Origin: Octopus sinensis | Taxonomy: Eukaryota | Reading direction: 5' to 3' | DNA length: 64,000 bases | NCBI RefSeq assembly: GCF_006345805.1 | Contig: NC_043004.1 | Span: forward strand, 53,506,001 to 53,570,000 | In this document: one piece after another, positions 97-58,807 of the stretch | Numbering within the stretch: the first letter of the stretch is position 1 | Layout of the letters: each line of letters begins with the position of its first letter | The notes under the pieces: model-generated | Database searches by the model: none | Told to the model about the DNA's origin: nothing | The model's input: the letters and a program-made list of their open reading frames with translations, nothing else | Program-made: the position numbers and the translations under genes

Positions 97-142
97 TCTT
101 GCAGCTGTTTTAGGGATATTTTATATATCCCTGCATCAGAGA
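97..142 (-). ncRNA. Degenerate minimal hammerhead
   Basis: UCU-CUGAUGC-AGGGAUAU(AUAAA)AUAUCCCU-AAAA-CAGCUG-C-A-AGA. Perfect 8-bp stem II and palindromic CAGCUG, but three core substitutions. Confidence 0.5.
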
Positions 143-299
143 TGGTGTGAGAAAATGGTTAAGCAATAGACATGCTTGACCTCCTGCTTCTGCCCCCGCC
201 CCCGCCCTACCCGAGAAATATCAATTGAGGTAACTTTGGCACACAGAGATAACTTTGGTAGAAGGAATACGGTGGAATTTCTCAGAAAATAGGGGTGAG

Positions 300-437
300 T
301 GAGGGACTAAACCTATATATAAAGCACCCTATATAAAACACCCCTACAGTGTTTCATGCCGATTGGCCCAATCTTTTGGACGTGATGCGAGTACAGACGG
401 ACGAACGGGCTGACATTACGTCCATTATAGTATGATT
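300..437 (-). mobile_element. Possible non-autonomous Helitron/Helentron-type (DINE/Lep1-like) end fragment
   Basis: Minus strand starts TCATACTATAAT, followed by gttcgtccgtctgt microsatellite-like sequence and ccaatcggcatgaaa. This resembles the layout of such elements; recognised by resemblance only. Confidence 0.35.
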
Positions 438-690
438 ATAGTATGATATATATGTATGTATTTTGTACTAGATCCAAAAGGTCCACAGTTATTCGTCGAC
501 AGCCATTCTAAGTAAAAGTTAGAAAGGAATTCCCGTCGTTTTTTGGAACAGTGAATTATTGCATCCCTCGCCATGAGAAAATTGACCCTGCGTCTTCCGT
601 ATAGAAATGAGTGAGTGATGAATTTATTTGATATTTAGAATGACATCAAGTTACATAAACTTTGAAATAGTCCAAATAAAAAACAAACAA

Positions 691-770
691 GAGAGAGAGA
701 GAGAGAGAGAGAGAGAGAGAGAGAGAGAGAGAGAGAGAGAGAGAGAGAGAGAGAGAGAGAGAGAGAGAGA
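691..770. repeat. (GA)n microsatellite
   Basis: ~40 perfect GA units. Confidence 0.98.
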
Positions 771-2254
771 CAACAAGTAAAATCGCAATAACTTGAGGAA
801 CATAATGAGATAAAGTAAGTGGATGTTATATCAGGATTGCAAGTAGTAGAAACAATTCGATTAACAATTGACTCCTTAGGGACCTGGCATTGCAGCTGGC
901 ATATTTAGAATGAATTTTATATCATAAGGTTGGTTTGTAAAATGTTTATGATAGAAATTTCATAAATTAGAATTATATACAAAATATATGCGGTTCTTGG
1001 TTTTTACAGCAGGTCTAACAAGGGCCAACGGTAGCCTTTGGTGGCGACCATTCTGCTGCAATCATCCAACAATTCCTCAGATACGAATATGATTGCTCTT
1101 ACGAAGCCGCCAATACGTAAGGCCAGGAAGCAGGAGCAAGGGATTATCGCCGAGTGTGTGTTTGATTATGTGCATATGTGAATATATATGTGCGTCCGTT
1201 TTGTTACAGCGCGTTACGCGCAATGTGTGTGCGTATCTGTCCAAATATGTTTGTTGCTCATAGAATGTAAGATATGTAACATGTATCCATCTGCATAAAT
1301 ATATCACAGATGAGAAATATATTCACCTCGTAAATGGCCTTATATATTTGCACATATCAGTGTATATTCATATACAGAATATACATACATGTGCGCTCGC
1401 ACACGCACATACATATATGCATGTATGTGTGTGTATATATATATATAGTTCATATACACATGCACGTATATGTGTGAGTGCGTTTATGTCAGTCCACAAA
1501 TGTTTCTTTTCTATTATTTACATGCGTCTTTAATAATTATATACGAGTTCGCATCTTTATTGAAATATATTTCTTCCTGAGAAAGAGATTATAACTAAGA
1601 ATTTAAGTAAAAACTGATATTCAAACTATGCAAACGAGTTCCATTTGATGCTGAGAAAATTAATAAAAGATCACACTTCACAACAGTTCAAAGCTGGAAT
1701 TTCTTTAACTTCTTATCTTTTGTGTATATGAGTAATAACTGCGTTTTAAGACTTCTAAAGATGGCACTTACATGCGTTTTATTCTTTGAAAAGCTTTCAT
1801 ATTTGCCATCTGAAGAATTTTTGTGAAAAGTTGGTAGAATTTCTTAATTATATGCCGCTATACTTGTTCCTATTTCACAAAAGCCGTTGAAAAGAATATT
1901 TCATATATATATATATATATATATAATATATATATATATATATATAATATATATATATATATATATGAAAAGAATAAATATTTCATGTGTGTGTGTGTGA
2001 GTGTGTATGTATGTATGTATGTATATAAGTATGTATATGCTTTTATCGTGTCTAGTCTTTTCATCGAGAATTTCACTAGAAGTGAAATGCTGTCTGGAAC
2101 TTTTCCGAGCAAGAATGGCTATTTGATCCAAGACATATCCTACCTCACCTACGTTACAGTTAAATATTTCCAAATTCATTGATTATTTCTCGTTGATTTA
2201 GACCGTTAAACCTGACTTCTTCTGACTGTCTGGTTCATTGTTGCATCCTTTTCA

Positions 2255-56450: not shown

Positions 56451-57005
56451 GAGTGAGAGAGCAGTTCATGCCATCAAAGTGACACTGGGGTAAAATATAC
56501 GAAGCCCAATATACCCATCATGACTACCCGTCTGTAAGTGTACATTAGGCACATGCATCACAACCATATGTGCGCGACATGGTGATCTCATAAAAAGATA
56601 AACAGGACTTGATCTTGCAGGTGGGGCCCAGTTAGAATTTTCTTCTGGTTGAGTAGCCCATCCCGCTCAAAAGGTCCCTGAATAAGGGTTGTTTAAGGAT
56701 GTTGAAAGAACCACCCATGTTTCCAGAGGTGAATTATTGAAACCCTAAAGAATCCCTCTCAACACATGGTTATGATGCTCCCCCACTGCTTCTGCTCGTG
56801 ATCAGAGATGCACATATCGTCAGCCACTAAGGGACATGCTCGACTGGTTAAAGTCAAACAACTGACAAGCAAATCTGTGGTATTGAGCAGAATATTTGCT
56901 GTAGCCCATCTTTTATACCAAGACAAAACAATGTACATGATAACACTTCCAATCAGTTAAGATCAGAAGCCATGAGAGCCACTGACTGATACTGCATCAG
57001 GGCAT
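56451..57005. mobile_element. (TAA)n-inserted ~555 bp interspersed repeat
   Basis: Second copy of 10064-10611 with identical termini and (TTA)n flanks. Confidence 0.88.
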
Positions 57006-57369
57006 TTATTGTTATTATTATTATTATTATTATATTATTATTATTATTATTATTATTATTATTATTATTATCATCATTATTATTATTACTACTACTACTA
57101 TTATTATTATTATTATTATTATTATTATTATTATTATTATTATTATAATTATTATATTATTATTATTATTATATTATTATTATTATTATTATTATTATTA
57201 TTATTATTATTATATTATTATTATTATTATTATTATTATTCAGGTCACTGCCTGGGATCAAACCCAGGTTCAAATTTCCCCAAAACACCTGAACAAACCA
57301 GATGTGGACAAATATCCGTGAAATGTAAATAATGTACATAATTCCTCATCTCTTAAATATGGAACTGTA

Positions 57370-57570
57370 TTCTTTTACTTGTCTCAGTCATTTGACTGTG
57401 GTCAAGACGGAGCACCGCCTTTAGTCGAACAAATCGATCCCAAGACTTTTTCTTTTTAAGTCTAGTACTTATTCTATCGGCTTCTTTTCTCGAACCGCAA
57501 AGTTACGGAGACGTAGACACACAATCCTCGGCTGTCAAGTGATCTTGGGAGCGACAAACACAGACACGCA
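57370..57570 (-). mobile_element. SINE family A 3' part
   Basis: Diverged match to 48045-48245. Confidence 0.8.
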
Positions 57571-57629
57571 ATCATATACACACACACACATACATACATA
57601 TAAATGTACATATATATTTATACATATAT

Positions 57630-58807
57630 ATATAATTTAGAGAAAAACCTCTATTCAGCAATTCAATAGTGAAAGACGTTATTCGCAGCATATAGAAAAG
57701 AATTGAATATACTATAAAAAACATTATTCTAAAAAGCAATAAAGTAATTAAACAATAAATACTAAATAGACTACGCGCATTTCGTGTTTATAATAACTAA
57801 TAATTAAAAAAATGATTGAATTCCTACTTGACCTAAAAATTAAATGTAGACATAAATTTAATTAATATATATAATATGTTTAGCTAATTTATGTATATAT
57901 AAAAACTCTATTTTATTTTACTAATTGTTGTAGTATTAATTTGTAGTAGTATAATGTGTATAAATCAGCACGAGATTATATAGTGCATATTACATGATTA
58001 TAATACGATTAAACTAAGATGTTTATAAAACAAATAAAAAATTCATGAGAATAGATTAAATTTAGCTTAATTCATGTATATTATGTATTTTACGTATTTT
58101 AATTTTGTTATTTAGATTTAAAATTTTCCAGTGAATGGTATATTACAGGTTTTTTTTTCTTATTCTCACAGCTAAAATACAGTTTGTCATTTTAACAGCT
58201 TAAATACATGTTTCTATCTATTTATTCTATAATTTTTATTTACGCAATGATTTTACGCGATAAATTTCTTATAAACGTTAAGTTGTACGTATTACGTTTA
58301 AAATTTTAGTTAACAGAAATTCTTCGATAAGATAAGTTATGATTTTGTTTTAAGTAATATGGTTACATTTTATTCGATTATCTATTGTTAAAACACTATT
58401 TATTTGGTACTTATTATAAGTTAAGATAGTACATTCATTTTATTATTTTTATTATTATTATTTTAGACCTGATGAGTGACTATATTTTTCAAATAGAATT
58501 AATTTTCGTTCGATTTAATTTTAAATCGAATAGATTTTATTATTATTATTATCTATTTGAAAATATAGCCACGAAACGGGCGTAGTCTGTTTACTATTTA
58601 TTGTTTATGTATTTTAATGATTTTTAGAATAATATCTTTTATAGTATATTCAATTTTTTCTCTATGTTGTGAATAACGTATTTCACTATTAAGTTGATGA
58701 ATAGAGGTTTTTCTCTAAATTATATATATATATTTATATATTGTGACATTTGATTTAAAATTGCTAAATTGAATTTTCCCTGTGAGTCTGGAATTATATT
58801 TCCTATC
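57630..58807 (+). mobile_element. AT-rich HHR element with inverted 5' copy
   Basis: 57630-57792 is the reverse complement of ~58565-58725. The tail 58700-58807 is homologous to 46208-46310. Confidence 0.82.
58464..58589 (+). ncRNA. Type I hammerhead with very long stem II
   Basis: UAGAC-CUGAUGA-GUGACUAUAUUUUUCAAAUAGA...UCUAUUUGAAAAUAUAGCCAC-GAAA-CGGGCG-U-A-GUCUG. Canonical core and GUA site. Confidence 0.82.

Follow-up and report, generated by a model that had tools for sequence, protein, structure and literature searches.

Probable coding and non-coding Penelope-like element ends with minimal hammerhead motifs at (TA)n sites in an Octopus sinensis genome segment

This study asks what the hammerhead-bearing repeats of one Octopus sinensis locus are and how they came to be inserted there. 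The locus is a stretch of 64,000 nucleotides (assembly GCF_006345805.1, contig NC_043004.1, positions 53,506,001 to 53,570,000), hereafter the window, numbered from its first letter. A preliminary description, made from the letters alone, had reported about 14 hammerhead ribozyme (HHR) or HHR-like motifs, one of them in a Penelope-like element (PLE) and the others in about nine further elements, which it regarded as sequence-divergent, non-coding, retrozyme-like fold-backs set in microsatellites and probably mobilised by PLEs. Window repeats were identified by masked self-BLAST, and subsequent genome searches sorted the motifs into ten repeat families, A to J (Table 1), each with a type I minimal HHR upstream of fixed 3' ends. 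The elements are probably PLE 3' ends (pseudo-long terminal repeat, pLTR, units), four belonging to coding families (F, G, I and J) and six to non-coding families (A-E and H) likely copied in trans into (TA)n.

Hammerhead motifs

An HHR or HHR-like motif was found at each of the 14 positions reported, and the count of nine elements besides the PLE was borne out. A strict type I descriptor gave 8 perfect-core matches in the window (22956-, 23240+, 23797+, 27749-, 28247-, 45952-, 46031+ and 58469+), compared with a mean of 0.075 over 40 local dinucleotide shuffles, a frequency above chance. With one core mismatch permitted, 11 matches were obtained versus 2.3 per shuffle; two such matches outside the preliminary description, 19258(-) and 61732(-), lie within this chance level. 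A single HHR pattern, taken from the cores of D- and H-like families, matched the genome 5,880 times and its reversed control 48 times, which supports the dense, diverse population proposed earlier. Further H-like, B-like and unassigned HHR families occur in the first 8 Mb of contig C1 (L367-L369, L376, L380 and L384-L386), and so this diversity extends beyond the ten families of the window.

The core CUGANGA / GAAA / UH, in type I order, is the consensus in B, D, E, G, H, I and J; the variant cores are U4C in A, U3-A8 in C (mostly UUGAUAA) and A6U in F. Nine of the 14 window motifs carry the consensus core, two carry the family-wide variants of C and F, and three are decayed or cut: 97 has three core changes, 45576 has G5A, and 49918 begins within the core. 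The families to which these three copies belong (A, G and I) themselves have cores that are intact or variant. The first three stem I pairs were paired at 30/30 positions across the ten families, with four different closing pairs; these pairing counts and those of core variants include overlapping loci. N7 was the most variable position of the first box in B, E and F, and stem III was palindromic, without a stable monomer hairpin, in 8/8 families tested (all but B and J). The HHR was always on the sense strand, as set by the open reading frame (ORF) or the fixed 3' ends. The B motif at 3054 has a consensus core and was missed by the stem II length rule of the descriptor; it folds into an HHR shape, with equally good folds in 10/200 shuffles. 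These findings support the motifs as genuine PLE-type minimal HHRs, which are predicted to cut only as dimers.

Coding and non-coding families

Among the approximately 40 best matches scored per family, identity was 95-100% in D, E, H and I, which are young, approximately 90% in A and B, and 71-89% in C, G and J. Each DNA query returned 508-3,629 candidates, which are not copy numbers. As the preliminary description had held, the families are unrelated in sequence, apart from H and J, whose 3' ends are 69% alike, and a short end motif common to D and E.

Family F is a coding PLE with reverse transcriptase (RT) and GIY-YIG frames and the Neptune features of a C-terminal GIY-YIG domain, a CX2-5CxxC linker and CCHH cysteines. 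A sense PLE ORF lay upstream at 7/15 loci of G, 30/30 of I and 9/30 of J. G runs into Neptune-type frames and is labelled by its similarity to such proteins. I forms the 3' terminus of an intact coding family of young age, which has no CCHH cysteines and whose linker is not the full CxCX5C motif. J continues for at least 1.4 kb into RT-thumb and GIY-YIG frames, both decayed, and has the CxCX5C linker of the Hydra clade and no CCHH cysteines; the Neptune (F, G) and Hydra-like (I, J) clade labels follow motifs or similarity. The window copies of G, I and J (45576, 49918 and 58464) are truncated 3' ends of coding PLEs, and the earlier claim that all nine elements are non-coding and non-autonomous fails for these three.

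No link to an ORF was seen for the remaining six families across the 15-50 loci sampled per family, and within that sample they are candidate non-coding elements, as proposed earlier, and not truncated ends of coding PLEs. A sense PLE ORF was found upstream at 0/20 loci of A, 0/20 of C and 0/30 of H; the single cases in B (1/26), D (1/50) and E (1/30) each lay 0.7-1.4 kb from the motif, beyond the unit. Head-to-tail units measure approximately 558 nt in D, 497 nt in E and 547 nt in B, and in every multi-unit copy of these families the element's own unit, instead of an ORF, lies upstream. In D, an arm can contain as many as seven full units and additional partial ones, up to 8 units in all. Rows of head-to-tail HHR units were found in D and in part of E and B, were rare in C, comprised one junction in H and were not seen in A; A and H occur mostly as single units. 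The retrozyme likeness proposed earlier applies to the tandem families D, E and B. H stops at one 5' point in 25/25 exact matches, a result that held when rechecked with an exact pattern against a selection effect.

In family C the inverted arm lies upstream and bears the tail; copies start at variable 5' points and stop at either of two 3' ends. Together with the family-wide fixation of the palindrome, these features indicate that C is likely a fold-back insertion that itself became a master copy. A miniature inverted-repeat transposable element (MITE), which would have fixed symmetric termini and a target duplication, was ruled out by the variable 5' starts and the two alternative 3' ends.

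Insertion sites and fold-backs

Each family has two fixed sites at which its 3' ends fall; the two lie 70-150 nt from each other and look alike (a pyrimidine run, a CCT-like word, then AAT or TAT). (TA)4 followed the fixed 3' ends in 54/54 cases for D, 41/43 for E and 49/51 for H, compared with 7% of window positions, in agreement with the microsatellite setting described earlier. The 5' ends were scattered and fell at the HHR cleavage site in only 2/64 cases for D, 1/43 for E and 1/52 for H. Features of PLE mobilisation are present, namely variable 5' truncation, partial tandems, 5' inverted copies, two alternative 3' ends and AT-rich targets, and the PLE-style mobilisation into (TA)n that had been suggested is upheld. 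An inverted partial copy, previously ascribed to most motifs, was seen at D, E, G, H, I and J and not at A, B and F; the palindrome of C is intrinsic to the family.

Of the 58 head-to-head fold-backs with two canonical ends, 57 paired a long end with a short one; the exception was long plus long, none was short plus short, and 13 more fold-backs had a non-canonical or cut end. By family, long plus short ends were found in 20/24 fold-backs of D, 13/15 of E, 12/14 of A, 8/13 of B and 4/5 of a positional D sample, after overlapping loci, one near-duplicate D site and piece ends had been removed. H lies outside the count of 58 because its query forces one long end; the other end was short in 20/20 H fold-backs. 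This quantitative rule is added here.

The two arms of a fold-back also share rare variants. After removal of substitutions within 3 nt of gaps or within 4 nt of each other, 8 rare variants common to both arms were counted in E (0.23 permuted) and 4 in H (0.24 permuted). The arms held 41 singletons in E and 50 in H, indicating that they were not homogenised wholesale. The two D subfamilies were never mixed within any of 34 sites. The long-plus-short rule and the rare variants in both arms suggest that one template is primed at two sites; sharing between arms would likewise result from gene conversion or from two RNAs with a common source locus. The two arms begin at unrelated 5' points, which rules out both a simple snap-back and L1-type twin priming on a single linear RNA.

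Insertion model and alternative explanations

The explanation that we prefer is PLE-driven copying in trans. The RT and endonuclease (EN) of a PLE would act on the six non-coding families and nick both (TA)n strands. Each 3'-OH would prime cDNA at one of the two similar sites that lie 70-150 nt from each other on a single RNA, and head-to-head joining of two 5'-truncated cDNAs would produce a fold-back whose ends are one long, one short; the HHRs may cut as dimers within tandem transcripts. A fuller model, in which both target strands are primed jointly by a PLE dimer that uses two dedicated sites of one RNA, D is a recently active circular retrozyme with rolling-circle arrays, and fold-backs give rise to hairpin masters such as C, is doubtful when taken as a whole.

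Several results weigh against the preferred explanation or its circular form. No ORF joined to the ends of A-E or H was found in 40 regions around Neptune-type ORFs and 60 protein-search loci, and the 3' ends of A-E match none of four Neptune-type families, F, I or J; a partner search with the I protein returned only the close relatives of I itself, and scoring the best matches could miss rare coding copies. In Rfam, no HHR appeared at these motifs among the best 150 of 264 window matches listed, and the HHR models gave 0 matches at gathering score in 9 loci. Monomer folds of 8/10 motifs had z above -1.5 and were not better than shuffles; J and, weakly, B folded better. The Rfam miss and the weak monomer folds are expected because the motifs are minimal, and they were not counted as support. 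Self-cleavage is predicted from sequence and circular RNA is hypothetical, low activity has been reported for minimal HHR motifs, and among frog retrozyme dimers 8/9 did not cleave and 1/9 did. For the anole PLE PAc in vitro, start sites did not differ between top and bottom strand, and its HHR mutants inserted normally (PMC11167929). Of the D variants, 28 occur in only some monomers, and several are restricted to a single arm; just 4 fixed variants extend across both arms, and filtering left none of these private to a site. At one H locus, 355 nt of 5' flank is copied in both arms, and H looks to act as a linear read-through template.

The alternative that survives best, and from which we lean slightly away, is that the elements are bona fide circular retrozymes, whose dimers would self-cleave, whose monomers would circularise and whose arrays would be written by rolling-circle reverse transcription. 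It accounts for cDNAs that cross the cleavage site repeatedly while 5' ends do not accumulate at it. D contains 27 variants carried by every monomer of their site, compared with 0.85 after permutation, and 8 of the 27 are private (0.05 permuted); however, uncleaved multimers or later unequal crossing-over yield the same patterns. One D array alternates A-B-A-B-A, which fits a dimer circle, and D, E and B monomers folded as circles lie well below block shuffles. Circles have been shown for coral, mussel and axolotl retrozymes, whereas the motifs here are of the PLE-type minimal form with its low reported activity, and A and H are mostly single units. The partly shared and arm-restricted D variants imply some later duplication. 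We infer, less firmly, that long D arrays stem from a template repeating one monomer. This template was possibly a circle released by HHR cleavage; a homogeneous read-through multimer, or later local duplication, is the somewhat likelier source of the arrays.

It is improbable that all families are 5'-truncated ends of coding PLEs with unsampled bodies, which would leave no independent non-autonomous elements. This explanation is correct for F, G, I and J, and it could appeal to the likeness between H and J and to sampling confined to best matches. For D it is already unlikely: the own units that precede D, E and B in every multi-unit copy, the D arms of up to seven full units, the single 5' end of H and the inverted arm preceding C all argue against it. 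Satellite-like arrays and palindromes produced by duplication at the DNA level, their HHR-like words being chance or dead ones, would suit the partial and arm-restricted variant sharing in D, the three decayed window copies and the weak monomer folds, but are very improbable and are refuted for origin and motif reality by the enrichment over both controls, by pairing preserved across ten unrelated sequences and by young, dispersed copies in (TA)n whose 3' ends are fixed and whose 5' ends vary, although later local duplication may have added units.

Features of the window

The window copies are listed in Table 1.

Table 1. Window copies of the ten hammerhead-bearing families, with the motif positions first reported
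Feature	Reported motif	Coordinates	Strand	Remarks
Family A, 5'-truncated copy	97	2-169	-	HHR 142-97, decayed here; family core CCGAUGA (U4C)
Family A copy, 3' end and tail		extend left past window edge		into (TC)n/(TA)n
Family B, partial head-to-tail unit of ~547 nt	3050	2957-3267	+	HHR from 3054, core CUGACGA; short 3' end
Family B, second insertion		27238-27558		short fold-back lacking an HHR; ends one long, one short; absent from the preliminary description
Family C, hairpin element of ~400 nt	4205	4005-4417	+	arms 77% alike, fixed family-wide; HHR in loop from 4210
Family D fold-back	22909, 23236, 23793	22589-24133	+	inverted arm 22589-23090 and 1.9 head-to-tail units of ~558 nt; HHRs 22956(-), 23240, 23797; long 3' end into (TA)n
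Family E fold-back	27691, 28189	27557-28499	-	1.4 units of ~497 nt (HHRs 27749, 28247) and inverted arm 28275-28499
Family F, coding PLE	35718	35620-39173	-	RT frame 39206-36798; GIY-YIG frame 37488-36403; Neptune-type linker
Family F, 3' pLTR		35930-35620	-	HHR at 35750, core CUGUNGA (A6U); (TA)n on either side
Family G, truncated 3' end of decayed Neptune-type PLE	45576	45436-45708	+	has a short inverted piece; decayed HHR near 45579 (G5A here); family core consensus
Family H fold-back, non-coding unit of ~340 nt	45887, 46028	45725-46323	+	HHRs 45952(-), 46031(+); left end short, right end long
Family I, 3' end of young coding Hydra-like PLE	49918	49845-50066	+	inverted tail 49845-49928 and direct piece from within HHR core
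Family J, truncated 3' end of decayed Hydra-like PLE	58464	57602-58806	+	last codons and ~1 kb of untranslated region (UTR); inverted arm 57602-57792; HHR 58469, long stem II

Short fragments from the ends of H, G and B, lacking an HHR, were found at 48954-49007, 46470-46619, 53873-53936 and 6158-6230. The antisense strand of each D unit (23026+, 23169- and 23726-) carries a collapsed HHR-like word that lacks stem II and is similar to the pLTR motif of F type; it may be what is left of a second ribozyme. A separate repeat at 2712-2957 adjoins B on its 5' side. Elsewhere, copies of this repeat form pairs that face inwards, spaced 250-800 nt, an arrangement resembling the long terminal inverted repeats of a DNA transposon.

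Tandem repeats of 122-133 nt lie between the end of the F ORF and its pLTR (35930-36400). A further Hydra-like PLE remnant at 32900-33600 (+) consists of a decayed GIY-YIG frame with a CxCX5C linker, ends in (TA)n and gave no HHR descriptor match. The genome also contains four coding Neptune-type families (L189, L192, L205 and L219) that are 56-64% alike, three of them with open frames of 780-850 aa; no HHR was detected by a simple core pattern in those parts of their 3' UTRs that were examined.

Two other repeat types share the window. The 3' ends of a non-LTR element (one that lacks long terminal repeats) with a (TTA)n terminus and a 230-nt tandem duplication lie at 10064-10841, 19720-20184 and 56451-57006; we take its restriction-like endonuclease tail to be of the Dong/R4 type. 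An abundant family resembling short interspersed nuclear elements (SINEs), 77-91% alike, is represented at 6670-7013, 33721-33921, 43036-43446, 48034-48452, 54346-54726, 57368-57616 and 58957-59097.

Significance and comparison with known systems

Statements on sources cited by accession in this section refer to the part of each text that was available. The tandem and inverted insertion mode of PLEs and the role of their hammerheads are open questions (PMC8557442, PMC11167929). Young, abundant non-coding families provide clean substrates and a genomic record of PLE insertion, and the long-plus-short rule and the sharing of variants between arms directly constrain the insertion mechanism; the core variants U3-A8, U4C and A6U are natural material for ribozyme assays. 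If the fuller model given above were true, thousands of dated insertions would test the PLE and retrozyme life cycle directly, and the one-sided tail and fold-back of PLE insertions would be explained. The families may also account for part of the unclassified SINE/MITE content in octopus annotations; many unclassified SINE families in octopus are reported in PMC13282606, the available text of which mentions no hammerheads.

The motifs resemble the minimal HHRs of metazoan PLEs (PMC4209133) in that stem I is short and stem II long, an unpaired base follows A9 and stem III is palindromic, and also in the many families per genome, the opposite-strand pairs 100-700 bp apart and the U3-A8 variant. 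That study reported thousands of minimal HHRs per genome, opposite-strand pairs and U3-A8 cores, and attributed most single motifs to truncated PLEs; its available text includes no cephalopod and no family-wide U4C (A) or A6U (F) cores.

Canonical EN+ PLEs (PMC8557442) share with these insertions the partial tandems, 5' inverted copy, one-end tail and (TA)n bias, and the linkers of F (CX5CxxC) and J (CxCX5C without CCHH) are as in the clades described there. The one-sided PLE tail was known qualitatively, and non-autonomous multicopy head-to-tail families are known in Chlamydomonas (Chlamys/MRC1; PMC8557442). The tails here measure 70-150 nt versus 30-40 in the PLEs of that study, and non-autonomous Chlamys elements are mostly without HHRs, unlike the families here. 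Two internal RT start sites define the tail in the anole Poseidon element PAc (PMC11167929), and probably here too; in vitro, PAc cuts both strands of an AT-rich target, and it is predicted to form a dimer. The fold-backs here used one of each site in 57/58 cases, whereas PAc in vitro showed no strand difference.

The likeness to non-LTR retrozymes, which PMC7229834 defines with mussel included, lies in non-coding head-to-tail units each with a type I HHR, in coding PLEs alongside and in the proposed mobilisation by PLEs; a preprint (10.64898/2026.07.22.740005; Li, Clavereau & Pollet) argues that retrozymes are non-autonomous PLE derivatives. Unit sizes are 497-558 nt here, compared with 170-400 nt in PMC7229834 and 51-972 in the preprint. 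The HHRs here are of the PLE-type minimal form, in contrast to the canonical ones with a loop 1-loop 2 contact in the PMC7229834 definition; the preprint also admits minimal HHR models, and no mollusc is sampled in its available text. Unlike non-LTR retrozymes, the elements here are dispersed (TA)n insertions with fold-backs and tails, their cleavage is predicted from sequence, and their circles are hypothetical. D and part of E and B fall within the 2026 sequence definition of retrozymes and lack the canonical-ribozyme feature of the 2020 one.

Literature searches, with Repbase, Dfam, subscription papers and bioRxiv supplements outside their scope, found no description of these ten families. 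The view of the system as new in kind does not hold: PMC4209133, PMC7229834 and the 2026 preprint describe such systems. Minimal PLE HHRs, retrozymes and the PLE origin of retrozymes are already published, and the octopus families are further members of these groups.

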